This document shows, piece by piece, positions 31,145-45,413 of a stretch of 46,086 nt of DNA. A model generated the notes under the pieces. That model had not been told where the DNA came from and ran no database searches. It saw nothing but the letters and a program-made list of their open reading frames with translations. This stretch comes from a virus. Its lineage: Duplodnaviria; Heunggongvirae; Uroviricota; Caudoviricetes. The DNA lies in the IMG/VR virus record IMGVR_UViG_3300028591_000113, positions 1 through 46,086 of that record; one strand, written 5' to 3'. The translations under genes were made by a program, and so were the position numbers. Numbering within the stretch: the first letter of the stretch is position 1; every line of letters starts with the position of its first letter.

Positions 31145-32146
31145 ATGATTGTATTAAGTATCATATTATCTATAATATGTGTAATATTACTTGGCTTAAG
31201 TATCTATGCTTTCAACCTAAGTCGAAGTTGTCGCCGCATCAAAGACGACTTAGCGCAAGCTAAAGCGAAGCGGGACAAGTTTGAAGCTCTCGCGAACCTT
31301 TACGAAGAACAAAATAAAGACCTCCATGAAAAATTACTACAGAAGGAAAATGATGCTGGTTTCGCGCAAGGTCAACAAGTTCAAGGAGAAGTCCAAGTAC
31401 GCGATGTCGCCGCAGAACTAAATAGTCTTAAAGAACAAAAAGAGATAGAGGCTTTGAAAGTCTCAGGCCTAGCGTTTACCAATTACATGTTTCTTCAGTC
31501 TCTCGCGACTTCTAAGGAAGAGCAATTACAGGTAGCAAACGTTACTCATGGCCTGGAGAACCGCAATAGAGAATTGTTAGAGGAACAATCCACTCTTCAG
31601 GGTGATGTGAAAAATTTACGTAATGAATTGAACCGATACCTTGCCATTAGAGAGGTTGTCGATAAAAGTATCAACGACGTTATTTGGTCTCCGATTTTGA
31701 AGGAAAAAGAAGCCAAATTGGTAGATATCTTAGATGAACTCAAGGATTTATATCCAGATCTTGCGATAGATTTCGCCAACATTGAGTGGAAGAAAATATG
31801 GATGCCGCAACTTCAAGAATTGGGCAGTGCCATCGATAAAGTTAGAGGTATTTATAGATTAGTATTGAAAGGTACTAAAAGTTGGGTAGTCGGCATAGAC
31901 CCACACGATGCGCCGATACTGGCCAGTTACGTCGGTCAGGCTGTGGATATCAAGGAAAGATGGTATCAGCATGTTAAAAAGATGGTCGGCGTAATGAGTA
32001 AGGGCAATGAAAGATTATATAATTATCGACCTGAAGATTTTGATTGGTGCATTGTACAACAAGGTAGTAATGTAGATTTAAATGAAAGTGAAAAATACTG
32101 GATTGATTACTATTGCTGCACCGATGCACTCAACAAGAAAAGGTAG
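31145..32146 (+). CDS. Membrane-anchored coiled-coil protein with C-terminal GIY-YIG nuclease domain, 333 aa
   Basis: N-terminal hydrophobic helix, heptad-rich middle, GIY...YVGQAVDIKERWYQH and E..WIDYY. Confidence 0.75.
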   Translation: MIVLSIILSIICVILLGLSIYAFNLSRSCRRIKDDLAQAKAKRDKFEALANLYEEQNKDLHEKLLQKENDAGFAQGQQVQGEVQVRDVAAELNSLKEQKEIEALKVSGLAFTNYMFLQSLATSKEEQLQVANVTHGLENRNRELLEEQSTLQGDVKNLRNELNRYLAIREVVDKSINDVIWSPILKEKEAKLVDILDELKDLYPDLAIDFANIEWKKIWMPQLQELGSAIDKVRGIYRLVLKGTKSWVVGIDPHDAPILASYVGQAVDIKERWYQHVKKMVGVMSKGNERLYNYRPEDFDWCIVQQGSNVDLNESEKYWIDYYCCTDALNKKR

Positions 32147-40439: not shown

Positions 40440-40930
40440 TCTGCCATTGTAGGTTAATTGATTTCAATGATTATGTTGCTATTCTTTCCCGACAATCTTG
40501 TTATCCTACTTTGAAGTTAACCTACTTCGCGCCGTGCGGTTTGTAGGTTAATGGTCGCGGGGTGGGGCCCCAAATGTAGGTTAAAGAACCTTTAAGCAGC
40601 AGCAGCTATAAAGGATTTTTGGGACCTCGTAGGTTAAAAATTGGGGTTGAAAAAATTTTCTGTAGGTTAATAATGAACTTTTCCTTGACATTTCCGAATG
40701 TAGGTTAATACAGATTCCGCCTGCGGCGCGGTTGTAGGTTAAGTAGGTTAATTAAAGCAGCAGCAGCCGCACCATATTGCATATTTGGGGTTAACCTACA
40801 CTTTTGTGGGTTAATTTAGTTGTTAATTAGTACTTGACATAGGATCTTGTAGGTTAATAAAGTTAACAACTTTTTATAATATGTTTGTTGTTAGAAATTT
40901 TTCTGGACAAGATCGATTGTAGGTTAATAA
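40440..40930. repeat. Non-coding cluster of about 12 TAGGTTA (usually TGTAGGTTAA) copies in both orientations
   Basis: Plus-strand copies near 40449, 40545, 40577, 40630, 40663, 40700, 40735, 40743, 40850, 40920; minus-strand copies near 40519 and 40792. Confidence 0.9.
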
Positions 40931-40950
40931 AAAAATAAGTGAAGTTTTGC

Positions 40951-41151
40951 TTGAACTACCCGAACGGGTGTGCTATAATTATTTATGTAAGGTGAAAGAA
41001 GAAAAAGAATTAGAAAAAAATAATTCAAAAATGTCTTGACCGATACCCCAAAAATATGATATAATATATATGTAAGGTAAAGGAAGAAAGAAATTAAGAA
41101 TTAAAATCTAATTAAAAACTTCTTGACCTAACACAAAAGTTATGATATAAT
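40951..41151 (+). promoter_or_regulatory. Three tandem sigma70-type promoters upstream of winged-helix paralogue 2
   Basis: TTGAAC-17-TATAAT (40951), TTGACC-18-TATAAT (41036), TTGACC-17-TATAAT (41123). Confidence 0.75.
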
Positions 41152-41496: not shown

Positions 41497-41756
41497 ATGT
41501 TTTTAACCTACAATCGATCGGCTTTTTACCCGACGGAATTAACCTACAAATTATGTGGGTTAACCACCTTCCCCGAAATGTCGATCGTCACTTTTATGCA
41601 CTTTTTGCATGGAACCGCGCATCGTATAATCTTTAGTGAAGCAGCAAAAAAGGCTGGATTAAGGCAGCAGTTTATGGCATAATATATATGTAAGGTGAAA
41701 AAAGGAAATAAACAAAACCTTATGAAAAATAAATTAGCATAACATTGAAAAAGTTA

Positions 41757-41785
41757 TTGACTTAACTCGAAAAGTGTGCTATAAT
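41757..41785 (+). promoter_or_regulatory. Promoter TTGACT-N17-TG.TATAAT driving the ORF-less GC-rich segment
   Basis: Near-consensus hexamers with extended -10; no credible SD/ORF downstream. Confidence 0.8.
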
Positions 41786-41794
41786 TATTATACA

Positions 41795-43390
41795 AGGTAA
41801 GTAAAGAAATAAATTATTTCTTTCAAACCCCCTGTGCAACAGCTCCCTACTCGGCGTATACTGCACATTAAAAAACAAAGAAGAGAGTCGAAGCCCACTG
41901 AGCAGACAGGGCAGCGCGAAAGGTCCTAAAGTCTGCTCCCTAACATAAGTTGGAACCCCATGACCGGCAGCCGCAAGGCGGGGGCAACGTACCTCAGAGA
42001 AATCGCCGAGCACGGGCTTAAATTCCCCGAAGCAAGAGGCAGGTTGATTCCCTGCAACTCTTCCTTATGTATTCCTGTGTGTGTTCCAGATGTTCGGACA
42101 CCCTATGCGTCAAGGTAATGGCGCAATTGATGGCCGCCCTAGCTAGGATAGTTCGGTCTAGCAGAAACTAGATGGGCGAGATTAAGTTCTCGTTACGGGT
42201 GCAAATCCTCGAGTGGTCCCAAAACACCCACGCAGCAGTGACCAGGGTGAGTACTAAGACGTCAAAACGTGAAAGCCCCTGCTGTACCGCGGGCCAACAG
42301 CCCCAAGCTTAGATATTAACGCGGTATACAAAAGATTGACAGACCTTGGGAAATCCAATGATAGCGACGGACTGCGGTTCTAACTACAGAGAATAAATAA
42401 GGCTCGCCAGCGGCGACTTGGATAGGCTTAAGAGACTAAACACCTGGACGATGAGCATTGCGCATGCATCTAGCCAAAGCGACTCTCGGAGTTGGCGAGA
42501 TCCAACTGGGTAGGATAGACCCCAATCATTCCGACGCAGCGTCGTGCACTGCTCCTCCAACAAGAATGGGGGATGGACAAGATGAATAAGGCAGTGGTGA
42601 GAGTCCACTTTAAACAACCGTTTCTGCACAAAGTCACTCAGCAGAAGAGTTAATCTGCCGTTAGACACAAACGTAATATGTATGTCTCGACTGCCAGAGA
42701 TAAAGGCTAATAAGTCCATTGGCACGGACCAATGCAATTGGGAGAAACATAGTGTAATGGCTACATGAAACATAGTAGAGGAAAATCCATTAAACTCATC
42801 TGGCGTGGTGCGAAACCAGAAGATTGTCATCGTGGTTGGTGACCTATGTAGGCATGATAACAAACCTTATATTGAGGAGCCACTGAGGTAATGGTAACTC
42901 CGACGGCAATTGATAGTGCCTTGAAAACTATCCGCGCGGCAATGGTTTGTGACAGTCGCAACTGTCTAGGATCAACGATGTGCTGGCGACACCCTGACTC
43001 CTGGGTACGGAGATGCCGGAGAGAAACCGGCACAATAGATTTAGCGTGACTACGGGCGCTTAGTTCAGGGTGAGAACTAAAAAATGCTGAGCCGCTACCG
43101 ATGACGTGAGTCGGTGGGTTGTTCCCTTATCACAAAAACCCTCGTCCATGTGGGTATAAACAGAAATGGACGTCAGCCAGAGAAAGTGAACGCCAACGGG
43201 CGTACTGGAAGTCATGCGGCGGCAAACGTGTGCAGTATCTTTGCCGAGGTACTTATTGTAATCCCTTTGTCTTCGCTGTGGCGCGAAGATCCGCTGATAT
43301 CTGTAAACTATCAAACGTGCTGGCGCATCAGCGTTAAAAAATTAAATGAATGCGCGTATTTGAGACCTCTAGCCAGGTCTCTTTTTATTT
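41795..43390 (+). ncRNA. Candidate giant structured non-coding RNA (~1.55 kb)
   Basis: Promoter and terminator bounded, GC visibly about 50% versus about 30% in the flanks, no credible ORF, long-range helix 41850-41867/43229-43248, many GNRA- and T-loop-like hairpins. Confidence 0.72.
43362..43390 (+). terminator. Terminator ending the candidate giant RNA
   Basis: GAGACCT-CTAGCC-AGGTCTC followed by TTTTTATTTT. Confidence 0.85.
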
Positions 43391-43618
43391 TGAAAAAAAT
43401 TTTTCCGTCTGGATTATACCACGTTTTACGCAGTAAGTCCAGAGTTTTTTATTTAATTTTGGGAAGGAAAACTTTCGACTTTTTCCTCCCCAAATTTTTG
43501 TCCCGAAAAGTATATATTATTCGGGACATTTTTGTCCACTTAACCGGACAATTTGTCCGGGTGGTTAACCTACACATTTTGTGGGTTAACAAAGTAGCAG
43601 GCTTAATGTAAATTATAC

Positions 43619-44579: not shown

Positions 44580-45413
44580 ATGGAAACATCATCATTCAAA
44601 GATTATTTAGTTCAAATCGCCAAGTATCCATTACTTCAACCAGAAGAAGAAAAGGCGCTTGCCTATCGTATTCGTGAAGGTGATGAAGATGCGCGTGAAC
44701 AACTCATCAATTCTAACTTACGTCTTGTCGTTTATCTCGCCAAGAACTACAAATCTAACTTCCTCGATTTAGAGGACCTCGTAATGGAAGGTAACCTTGG
44801 TCTTTTTACTGCGGTTGATAAGTTCAACCCAGACTTGGGCAATAGATTTTCAACTTGCGCCACACCATGGATTAAACAAGCCATTATGAAAGCAATTACT
44901 GAAAAGGGTAAGAACGTTCGTTTACCAGCCAACGTCTATCAAGCCCTCAACAACATGAAGAAAGCCGTTGATGCGCTCGCAGAAGATGGCATCTTATCAC
45001 CAACAGACGCGCAAATCGCCGAAAAGATGGGCATTGAAGAAGAAAAGATCGCCCTCTTAAAACAATGGAAGAAAGACACTGTGTCTTTAAGTGTTCCATT
45101 AGGTGATGAAAGCGAAGATACTCTTGAAGACTTACAAGCCGACCCTAACGACGAAAGCCCTGTTGCTTACGCAGAGCGTAAGATGGACGAAGAGTTCGTT
45201 AGAAAAATCTTGAAGGACTTGCCTGACAGAACCCGCACCATCATGAAAATGAGATATGGTTTGGGTGATGAAAATGACCCAGAAGATTGGCAAAGAGAGC
45301 ATACTTTGGAAGAAATTGGTGATTATTTAGGTCTAACTCGTGAAAGAATTAGACAAATTGAGAAACAAACCCTCCAAGAACTTAAAGTTCAGCTCGCAAA
45401 ATACGCTTATTAG
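44580..45413 (+). CDS. Phage-encoded sigma70-family RNA polymerase sigma factor, 277 aa
   Basis: Region 1.2 (DYLVQIAKYPLL), region 2 (NLRLVV...EGNLGL..AVDKF), region 3, region 4.2 (TLEEIG...TRERIRQIE). Confidence 0.95.
   Translation: METSSFKDYLVQIAKYPLLQPEEEKALAYRIREGDEDAREQLINSNLRLVVYLAKNYKSNFLDLEDLVMEGNLGLFTAVDKFNPDLGNRFSTCATPWIKQAIMKAITEKGKNVRLPANVYQALNNMKKAVDALAEDGILSPTDAQIAEKMGIEEEKIALLKQWKKDTVSLSVPLGDESEDTLEDLQADPNDESPVAYAERKMDEEFVRKILKDLPDRTRTIMKMRYGLGDENDPEDWQREHTLEEIGDYLGLTRERIRQIEKQTLQELKVQLAKYAY

Follow-up and report, generated by a model that had tools for sequence, protein, structure and literature searches.

To our knowledge, the very large structured RNAs described from bacteria and phages are few in number (rRNAs, group II introns, GOLLD, ROOL and OLE), and each such class has revealed unexpected RNA biology, the latest instance being RNA-only nanocages. 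In phage T4, tRNAs and small stable RNAs (species 1 and 2) are cut from common precursors, and the tRNA-like mascRNA is cleaved by RNase P. Among phage RNAs, GOLLD and ROOL are often found in the vicinity of tRNAs (PMC5737381), and the GOLLD linker itself sometimes contains tRNAs (PMC12286853). ROOL was discovered in cow rumen data; its mean length is 581 nt and its architecture, with six multistem junctions, is fixed (PMC5737381).

In the window, by which we mean the whole 46,086-nt stretch of DNA analysed here, the plus strand from ~41792, where transcription would start, to 43390 is, judged by sequence comparison, a non-coding RNA gene of a ~130-kb uncultivated phage; the RNA very probably represents a genuine structured family and, on the same grounds, forms a new class among large RNAs such as GOLLD and ROOL. 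It spans at least several hundred nucleotides, is non-coding and has many helices, multistem junctions and two covarying pseudoknots, the features that define large ornate non-coding RNAs operationally (PMC5737381). The original prediction of a non-coding RNA gene that is large, highly structured and equipped with a promoter and a terminator of its own is borne out by covariation, promoter and terminator alike.

Searches of known RNA families spanned the window, 17 related loci and, at E <= 10, the region itself. The window has no match in Rfam 15, not even to the families singled out beforehand for comparison (GOLLD, ROOL, OLE, RNase P, group I/II introns and tmRNA), and no family reaches its gathering score there or in ten related loci, 6S and SRP included. 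The region has no match to ROOL (RF03087; gathering score 99.1 bits) even at E <= 10; as a positive control, the true ROOL elsewhere in the same genome (69793-70386) was recovered with 196.4 bits. A skipping-rope candidate (RF02924) at 42946-43036 scored 19.2 bits against a gathering score of 36.7 (E = 0.28) and, being absent from seven relatives at E <= 1, was rejected as chance. Blastn against GenBank phages and plasmids gave no match, literature searches found no description of this RNA, and no second copy was found elsewhere in its own genome.

The predicted promoter (41757..41785, plus strand) is of the sigma-70 type, with a -35 TTGACT, a 17-nt spacer carrying an extended -10 TG, and a -10 TATAAT (11 of 12 consensus matches); it lies where it had been proposed and falls inside blastn matches to three relatives (L008, L012 and L015) and to the second locus of L024. 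The terminator at 43362-43390, also correctly foreseen, is intrinsic, its stem occupying 43362-43381 ahead of a T-run. A single ~1.6 kb primary transcript would run from this near-consensus host-type promoter to the terminator, and at that inferred length it would exceed each of the classes named above; for GOLLD, ROOL and OLE the original prediction had held as much. The segment is GC-rich (48.8% against 35% genome-wide) and, with 16-39 stops in each of the six frames, holds no credible ORF, two further claims that stood. Given that the stops in all six frames are a mixture of TAA, TAG and TGA, no frame is opened by recoding any single one of them. The longest ORF of the minus strand (159 aa) and that of the plus strand (165 aa) match nothing in Pfam, are not conserved among relatives and have lengths that shuffled sequence also reaches (99 +/- 26 aa), and on the stop distribution, this non-conservation and the lack of a Pfam match we rejected stop-codon reassignment and pseudogene readings. 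In the homologues it is base pairs that are conserved, and not a reading frame. Folded as a single sequence, the 5' half has an unremarkable energy (z = +0.10) and the 3' half an only mildly unusual one (z = -2.1), so that support for the structure comes from covariation rather than from folding stability.

The alignments show the predicted RNA as a series of domains that fold autonomously, with local helices and pseudoknots closing each of them; in the window the series runs M1, a variable hairpin, M2, a tRNA-like domain, M4, B5, B6 and a 3' hairpin domain (all on the plus strand). At the 5' end of the transcript, single-sequence folding predicts an AU-rich hairpin (41796..41829) whose sequence is common to L008, L012, L015, L032, L036 and L052. 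It is followed by the pseudoknot domain M1 (41833..41888), in which both P1 and the pseudoknot covary. P1 pairs 41833-37 with 41863-67 around a nearly invariant 25-nt loop, and among relatives takes the forms TGTGC/GCACA, TGAGC/GCTCA, CGAGC/GCTCG, AGTGG/CCACT and CGTGC/GCACG, among others. The pseudoknot pairs 41849-52 (ACTC) with 41885-88 (GAGT) across an A-rich linker (41868-84), and by a scripted count it is complete in 24 of 26 distinct sequences, which use 8 different pair combinations. A second large RNA gene lies on the far side of the neighbouring phage sigma-factor gene, and M1 also stands at the head of that second locus in L016-19 and L024-25; M1 may be an all-purpose 5' element of long transcripts that are not translated, and could block 5' exonucleases or aid transcription read-through. 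Beyond M1 is the variable hairpin (41895..41940; GAGCAGAC at 41900 with GTCTGCTC at 41931), which is replaced by unrelated hairpins in relatives and shows only partial compensation inside its own subgroup, and then the accessory domain M2 (41941..42116), which includes the GCC-GCAA-GGC hairpin and a GCAGG/CCTGC hairpin and has compensatory changes in 13 of 37 pairs, compared with 2-5 in slid controls.

The tRNA-like domain (42132..42221) consists of an acceptor-like stem (42132-37 paired with 42213-18), a D-loop-like strand (AGCTAGGATAG), two inserted hairpins, a T-arm with the loop TGCAAAT (42200-06), and CCA at 42219-21. We call it tRNA-like on operational grounds, namely an acceptor-type stem stacked on a T-arm, a 7-nt T-loop, a GG-containing D-loop-like strand, and covariation. 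Across 23 distinct homologues of 49-95 nt, compensatory changes in the acceptor and T stems affect 6 of the 11 consensus pairs, and the acceptor helix was also recovered in a blind alignment scan. The domain itself lies below the threshold of the tRNA model (RF00005, 29-bit bar), to which the region has no match at E <= 10, and is without a canonical discriminator plus CCA; ARAGORN finds no tRNA gene in the window. Among the relatives, an element embedded in the L041 unit matches the tRNA model with 31.9 bits, ARAGORN makes a call inside the units of L020 and L058, and those of L031, L038 and L063 contain a mini tRNA-like element. The only Rfam similarity was that of the minimal form in L050 to mascRNA-menRNA (RF01684; 15.9 bits against 42.5 gathering, E = 1.5), and the weak mascRNA and alpha-tmRNA matches were set aside as reflecting tRNA-like shape only.

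Five T-loop-like motifs had been pointed out in the sequence, of which we examined four. One of the four, GGTGCAAATCC (42198-42208), is a true T-arm, the one belonging to this tRNA-like domain, and the other three are not: GGCGAGATCC (42494-42503) is the loop of a pseudoknot-forming hairpin, and those at 42043 and 42596 lie in the loops of hairpins and differ in sequence among relatives. The tRNA-like domain would be recognised by tRNA-handling enzymes, and RNase P cleavage between 42131 and 42132, to which we give about even odds, would leave a structured body of ~1.17 kb.

Downstream of this element, block B3b and its linker hairpins (42222..42424) comprise CAGCAG (42233) paired with CTGCTG (42279), a 6-bp helix (42302-07/42345-50) with 4 compensatory pairs in the alignment scan, and a GCCAGCGGC hairpin; B3 has 8 compensatory pairs against 0-5 when slid. 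M4 (42425..42635), the universal core domain of 210 nt, folds into nine helices with a pseudoknot of its own, in which the loop (42496-500, CGAGA) of hairpin 42490-95/42502-07 pairs with 42484-88 (TCTCG), covarying, and has five branch points by itself. Its covariance model, R1, gives 57 matches, 46 of them distinct. Paired cells amount to 95.3%, compared with 34-50% when slid, and double-sided changes are found in 27 of 36 pairs, a number reached by 0 of 500 shuffles (16.8 +/- 1.6 in shuffled and 6-9 in slid alignments). Many G-U pairs in the M4 alignment would be A-C if read on the other strand, which fixes the plus strand as that of the RNA.

The B5 group (42640..43010) contains helices 42685-92/42736-43, 42770-75/42844-49 and 42912-17/42927-32 and the GACAG/CTGTC hairpin, with 29 of 53 pairs compensatory against 6-10 when slid, and its helices were also recovered by the blind scan. 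The B6 group (43005..43290), where 14 of 44 pairs are compensatory against 0-3 when slid, includes hairpins 43213-18/43227-32 and 43234-38/43249-53, the latter with the invariant loop CTTTGCCGAG and a stem that covaries as AGTAT/GTACT, AACAT/ATGTT, AACAC/GTGTT and GTAG/CTAC. The 3' domain and terminator (43290..43390) hold CGCTGAT/ATCAGCG, GCGCAT (43321) paired with ATGCGC (43349), and the stem 43362-81 with its T-run; the domain is kept in L011, L032 and L053, with an ACGCAT/ATGCGT compensation in L011. In every block of the window's RNA, then, compensatory base changes are well above controls, with the qualifications that tested structures and slid controls come from one set of alignments, which favours the tested structure, and that many of the sequences are related, so that the counts are not of independent events. 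The stems quoted in the original prediction are all in place, and those that comparative folding recovers are GCC-GCAA-GGC (41970), CAGCAG/CTGCTG (42233/42279) and GACAG/CTGTC (42951).

We located relatives through the sigma factor and by motif scans; in them the unit occupies the same locus, and each extends from M1 to a terminator. No fewer than 20 distinct relatives carry a homologous unit, which spans 0.4-1.9 kb from 5' domain to terminator. They are metagenomic contigs that belong, like the window, to one group of phages of 115-130 kb, and their source samples, judging by study names, are presumably rumen. In contigs holding both genes the unit is directly upstream of the phage sigma-factor gene; L002, the sole sigma-factor relative found in IMG/VR (39% identity), is without such an RNA. 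Two Chloroflexota matches in species-representative genomes consist of a 20-nt pattern only and were discarded as chance, as was the L044 match.

Core domain order is largely collinear across relatives, and around it domains are gained, lost, duplicated or relocated. M2 precedes the tRNA-like domain in the window, follows block B3b in L041, L054, L027 and L024, and follows M4 in L026; M4 is duplicated in L016-19 and in L042/L060; L011 is a minimal form of 400 nt. The collinear core order also fits a single architecture with a variable periphery, as in GOLLD, and to that extent counts against a modular reading. Given, however, that domain content ranges over 0.4-1.9 kb, that domains are relocated and duplicated, and that no distant helix is found, a multi-domain RNA fits better than one giant fold, and we consider it probable that the RNA is modular rather than globally closed. 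The original prediction had offered a new class or a multi-domain RNA as alternatives; with helices local and domains shuffled, the multi-domain wording is the one better borne out. Because the domains occur in varied orders and copy numbers, we infer that function resides in individual domains and not in a global fold.

The same variation in order, copy number and combination would be expected if the transcript were a polycistronic precursor from which a row of unrelated small stable RNAs is freed by processing at tRNA-like and other sites, with no large RNA persisting. This is the best of the alternatives, and an unlikely one. It would account for tRNA-like elements between domains, but the window's unit has one such element, which would yield at most 2-3 predictable products and leave ~1.17 kb uncut, and no further processing signals were found in the unit. 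Supported helices that link nearby strands only, and one promoter with one terminator, are as it would have them; the mostly collinear core order is not, and the 50-100 nt sub-domain pieces that also recombine would fit parts of a larger structure equally well.

A second alternative, that of the original prediction, is a single ~1.4 kb globular molecule closed across 1.37 kb by a helix between 41850-67 and 43229-48, with the inner stems in a fixed architecture; it is very improbable, and already largely refuted. The complementarity (10 + 6 bp) is present and is chosen by the minimum-energy single-sequence fold, but its 10-bp core is at chance level, since each shuffle of this sequence would be expected to yield about one perfect 10-bp complement, and 53% of shuffles yield at least one; the adjacent 6-bp match lowers the chance likelihood of the composite relative to the 10-mer alone, by estimate rather than simulation. 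Both strands are moreover engaged in local covarying structures, the 5' strand in P1 and the M1 pseudoknot and the 3' strand, which lies in B6, split between two hairpins. That 3' strand is found in a few close relatives only, two mismatches in the helix are uncompensated in L008, M1 is without a 3' partner in most relatives and heads a different RNA body in some, and a fixed fold sits poorly with the varying unit size.

Nor are distant parts of the RNA joined by any supported helix. Every strongly supported helix pairs strands less than ~100 nt apart, and a scan of the 20-sequence full-length alignment, a rough one in a method blind to tertiary and quaternary contacts (kissing loops, A-minor), found in the window no helix of at least 5 bp with at least 3 compensatory pairs spanning more than ~100 nt; the long-range candidates were of 4 bp only, at a noise-like density, and were rejected; tertiary or quaternary contacts may still give the RNA a global architecture or make it an oligomer. 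A loop-loop contact is conceivable, given that five of the five relatives with the B6 hairpin loop carry the complementary CTCGGC in the M1 loop. The M1 loop CUCGGC and the 3' hairpin loop GCCGAG are both invariant where they co-occur, the site overlaps the covarying M1 pseudoknot, and relatives with CTAGGC or CTTGGC in the M1 loop have no matching 3' loop partner. Pairing of a B5 hairpin loop with the M1 loop fits L027 only and was rejected.

It is extremely improbable that the region is a remnant with no function, such as a tRNA array in decay, GC-rich DNA of foreign origin or the scar of a mobile element, and is only incidentally transcribed. In GC content it is similar to the phage's tRNA region, tRNA-like pieces are present, and what the unit contains differs among relatives. 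Palindromic motifs also flank the unit: a motif search of the genome located TTAACCTACA-N5-TGTGGGTTAA upstream (41539..41563) and the same motif downstream (43565..43589), the latter also lying 3' of the terminator in relatives. The motif occurs just 5 times in the 130-kb genome, always within 40.8-47.9 kb, on both sides of this RNA gene and in a cluster at the distal end of the second RNA gene. A remnant would not, however, be expected to retain compensatory changes that keep non-tRNA folds in 46 distinct sequences and in every block, invariant single-stranded segments, and a conserved promoter and terminator. Least probable of all is that the region encodes a protein through a non-standard code or frameshifting, or acts as a long cis-regulatory leader of downstream genes, for despite the two ORFs of 159 and 165 aa and the small genes downstream, all three stop types occur in every frame, the ORFs are of random length, substitutions keep pairing and not codons, and a strong terminator closes the unit ahead of a next gene with its own promoter-like site.

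Overall, we favour, with reasonable though limited confidence, a modular non-coding RNA gene of local domains whose product would be an early RNA engaging the tRNA machinery. The RNA would be made early and abundantly, and would serve as a decoy or scaffold acting on the tRNA or translation machinery of host or phage, in a niche shared with GOLLD and ROOL; this mechanism we put forward tentatively, as a possibility. The genome encodes 33 tRNAs and one ROOL RNA, and this conjunction of a sigma factor, 33 tRNAs and a ROOL makes the role of large phage RNAs more testable. A bolder reading, which we regard as rather doubtful, is that this is the first of a new kind of kilobase-scale, domain-shuffling RNA gene, with a portable 5' pseudoknot cap, tRNA-like elements and autonomous domains recombined between phages like protein domains. 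If this were so, its length of up to 1.9 kb would surpass that of every other structured RNA known from bacteria or phages, ribosomal and intron RNAs apart, ~4 kb of the phage would be devoted to large structured RNAs (this gene, the second gene and ROOL), and an RNA-based host-takeover or counter-defence system would be implied, with single domains in an arms race. More immediately, this is a well-supported new class with at least two covarying pseudoknots and an embedded tRNA-like domain; a domain composition that differs among closely related phages is unusual, the natural deletion and swap variants help tell which domains matter, and the alignments suffice to seed new RNA family models.

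Among known systems, the T4 tRNA cluster is similar in that phage-encoded, GC-rich structured non-coding RNAs share one transcript with tRNA or tRNA-like elements; here, by contrast, the non-tRNA structured part exceeds 1 kb and has many domains, and the window's unit contains no canonical tRNA. The tRNA-like domain recalls mascRNA (MALAT1/MEN-beta) and the tRNA-like domain of tmRNA in placing an acceptor stem on a T-arm, with no normal anticodon arm, inside a long non-coding transcript, but unlike mascRNA it belongs to a phage and not a eukaryote, and stands near the 5' rather than the 3' end of the transcript. Like ROOL, the RNA is large, structured, phage-encoded and presumably rumen-associated, but it is not homologous to ROOL, ranges over 0.4-1.9 kb and is modular. 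There is a likeness to GOLLD too, also a large pseudoknotted phage non-coding RNA with a universally conserved part, a variable part, and tRNAs nearby or in the linker (PMC12286853; PMC5737381). The present RNA differs in having no sequence or structure match to the Rfam GOLLD model, in being about twice as long, in domains that relocate and duplicate among close relatives, in a dedicated 5' pseudoknot domain common to a second RNA gene, and in adjoining a sigma-factor gene, 11 kb from the tRNA array.

The RNA gene (~41792-43390, plus strand) is bounded by a promoter at 41757-41785 (TTGACT, 17 nt with TG, TATAAT) and by an intrinsic terminator (stem 43362-43381 plus T-run), both of which the original prediction had called and both of which were recovered by promoter and terminator scans. 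Its description of the interval as GC-rich and free of any credible ORF also held: the GC content is 48.8%, every frame carries 16-39 stops with all three stop codons represented, and the longest ORFs had no Pfam match, were as long as expected from shuffled sequence, and were not found conserved in relatives. The inner stems it listed are present where it placed them. No Rfam 15 family matched the target at the gathering score, nor when hits up to E = 10 were allowed. In folding energy the sequence does not stand out, with z = +0.10 for the 5' part (41792-42640) and z = -2.1 for the 3' part (42641-43390); taken singly, it would not prove anything.

Relatives were gathered by searching for proteins similar to the neighbouring sigma factor (44580-45413), which gave a graded series from 100% to 59% identity. 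Their contigs have the same gene order and contain two long GC-rich gaps without ORFs, one upstream of the sigma gene, which is the target, and a second farther downstream, past the 164-aa gene that comes after the sigma gene. In profile searches the target was homologous to the relatives' first gap down to ~70% sigma identity, and exact-motif scans with two invariant motifs provided a further 2 + 2 viral contigs and 33 metagenome contigs. In ~20 distinct relatives the homologous unit spans the same 5' domain through to an intrinsic terminator; that of contig L011 is the shortest, at 400 nt, and all others are 950-1940 nt long. Judging from the study names, the source samples are presumably mostly rumen. 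Given that only two matches, both due to chance, turned up among 185,579 species-representative genomes scanned, the RNA appears to be confined to this phage group.

Compensatory changes among these relatives were present in each block of the window's RNA. A covariance model built for the universal domain M4 (42425-42635) had 57 matches (46 distinct), in which 95.3% of cells were paired versus 34-50% when the partners were slid within the same alignment; 27 of 36 pairs had changed on both sides versus 16.8 +/- 1.6 in shuffles and 6-9 when slid, and the observed pairing values were reached by 0 of 500 shuffles. Since G-U pairs are frequent in M4, the strand is plus. Consensus folding of the remaining blocks, scored as pairs with compensatory changes, gave 13 for the accessory domain M2 (41941-42116; slid 2-5), 8 for B3 (42222-42424; slid 0-5), 29 for B5 (42640-43010; slid 6-10) and 14 for B6 (43005-43290; slid 0-3). 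Two pseudoknots were supported. That in the 5' domain M1 (41833-41888) pairs loop 41849-52 with 41885-88 and forms in full in 24 of the 26 distinct sequences, using eight different combinations; that in M4 pairs 42484-88 with hairpin loop 42496-500 and occurs as the variants UCUCG/CGAGA, UCACG/CGUGA, UUG/CAA and AUG/CAU. The target is shown by this analysis to be a real non-coding RNA gene, with a product that is large, pseudoknotted and multi-domain and that lies outside every catalogued family.

A helix between 41850-67 and 43229-48, proposed to close the whole molecule, was not borne out. Its 5' strand is part of M1, with TGCACA forming the 3' arm of the P1 hairpin (41833-37/41863-67; covarying, with at least eight variants) and ACTC engaged in the pseudoknot; its 3' strand is divided between hairpins 43213-18/43227-32 and 43234-38/43249-53, the latter with a covarying stem and an invariant loop, CTTTGCCGAG. 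The 3' strand is moreover limited to close relatives, and in one of these, L008, it bears two mismatches without compensation. Shuffled sequences of this size are expected to contain roughly one perfect 10-bp complement each. When a 20-sequence full-length alignment was scanned blindly for helices of at least 5 bp with at least three compensatory pairs, all that qualified spanned strands less than ~100 nt apart in the window. Six bases of the M1 loop are complementary to six of the 3' hairpin loop; this match, which overlaps the pseudoknot and does not covary, could represent a loop-loop contact.

Positions 42132-42221 fold into an acceptor-type stem, a D-loop-like strand, two inserted hairpins and a T-arm. 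The 23 distinct homologues of this tRNA-like domain range from 49 to 95 nt, the shortest comprising acceptor, D-like strand and T-arm only, and compensatory changes are seen in 6 of the 11 consensus pairs. The segment did not score as a tRNA, and the sole similar Rfam model was mascRNA, with a sub-threshold match; mascRNA is the tRNA-like piece of MALAT1. Among five T-loop-like motifs originally noted, that at 42198 proves to be a true T-arm, that at 42494 is a pseudoknot loop, and two are hairpin loops unconserved in relatives. Further tRNA-like elements lie within the RNA units of relatives (L020:4433-4504; L041:6694-6774, minus strand; L031:165-228); one of these extra elements has a UUA anticodon loop and is called 'tRNA-Stop' by ARAGORN, one scores 31.9 bits and so reaches the Rfam tRNA threshold, and the third is a mini form lacking an anticodon arm.

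The core order of M1, tRNA-like domain, B3b, M4, B5, (B6) and 3' domain is mostly collinear across relatives, and the domains nonetheless behave as movable units. M2 precedes the tRNA-like domain in the window, L008, L029 and L048, follows B3b in L041, L054, L027 and L024, and follows M4 in L026. Duplicate copies of M4 occur in L016-19 and L042/L060, and the first half of M4 can precede different partners. Of the domains, L011 has only M1, a portion of M4 and the 3' domain. In L016-19 and L024-25 it is instead the second gap that is headed by M1 and M1's promoter.

This second ORF-free gap lies just past the window's 3' end (genome 46216-47972; L003:217-1973, a further part of the same genome; ~1.7 kb, ~43% GC), and is kept in all relatives, down to 64% sigma identity. 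In the window's genome it is not similar in sequence to the target, and it had no Rfam match; it is structured, with 54 compensatory pairs versus 6-8 when slid. The palindrome TTAACCTACA-N5-TGTGGGTTAA has five copies in the 130 kb genome, all within 40.8-47.9 kb, three closely flanking the target (window 40791, 41539-41563 and 43565-43589) and two near the second gap's far end (genome 47561 and 47869). It likewise lies 3' of the terminator in relatives, and may serve as an operator or mark a border of cassette exchange.

The virus record is rated complete at 130,018 bp with 35% GC, the window being its first 46,086 bases. Its terminase and sigma factor share only 30-42% identity with their counterparts in any GenBank phage, the terminase being closest to those of Geobacillus, Alicyclobacillus and Bacillus phages, and the source is therefore probably an uncultivated phage of a Gram-positive host. 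As the target's promoter is near-consensus, of host type and set among other such promoters, its sequence suggests early, strong expression. Window 40647-41151, where a series of near-consensus sigma-70 promoters (three with 11/12 matches) precedes very small ORFs, looks like an early-gene region. A 333-aa ORF at 31145-32146 has a weak C-terminal GIY-YIG homing-endonuclease match. The minus strand of 1-360 holds a GC-rich collagen-like repeat coding region of GGN-CCN triplets, and since the opposite record end (genome 129200-130018) is likewise GC-rich, the gene may run on from one record end into the other.

The genome carries 33 tRNA genes, 32 at 54383-67034 and one isolated at 88929-89025 (anticodon UCA; called SeC by ARAGORN). 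Two more GC-rich stretches within the tRNA region, 55746-56894 (47% GC) and ~60965-61964, had no sizeable plus-strand ORF and no Rfam match, and may be further unclassified RNAs. A full-length ROOL RNA (RF03087; 196 bits) lies 2.8 kb downstream of the tRNA array at 69793-70386 (L004:3794-4387, another part of this genome), and a c-di-GMP-I riboswitch aptamer (58.8 bits) at 74858-74933 (L004:8859-8934).

We infer that the RNA works as a chain of autonomous domains rather than as one closed fold. M1 would be a generic 5' element of long untranslated RNAs, and the tRNA-like domain a putative handle for tRNA-recognising enzymes, possibly with a predicted RNase P site between 42131 and 42132. Literature searches turned up no account of the RNA, nor is it in Rfam 15; its size, domain shuffling, portable 5' pseudoknot domain and embedded tRNA-like domain are new, and we rate it as belonging among the large ornate phage RNAs. 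GOLLD and ROOL, large structured RNAs of tRNA-rich phages whose functions are unknown, assemble as RNA-only cages (PMC5737381, PMC12286853). The niche of the present RNA, a large structured RNA in a tRNA-rich phage, is like that of GOLLD and ROOL.
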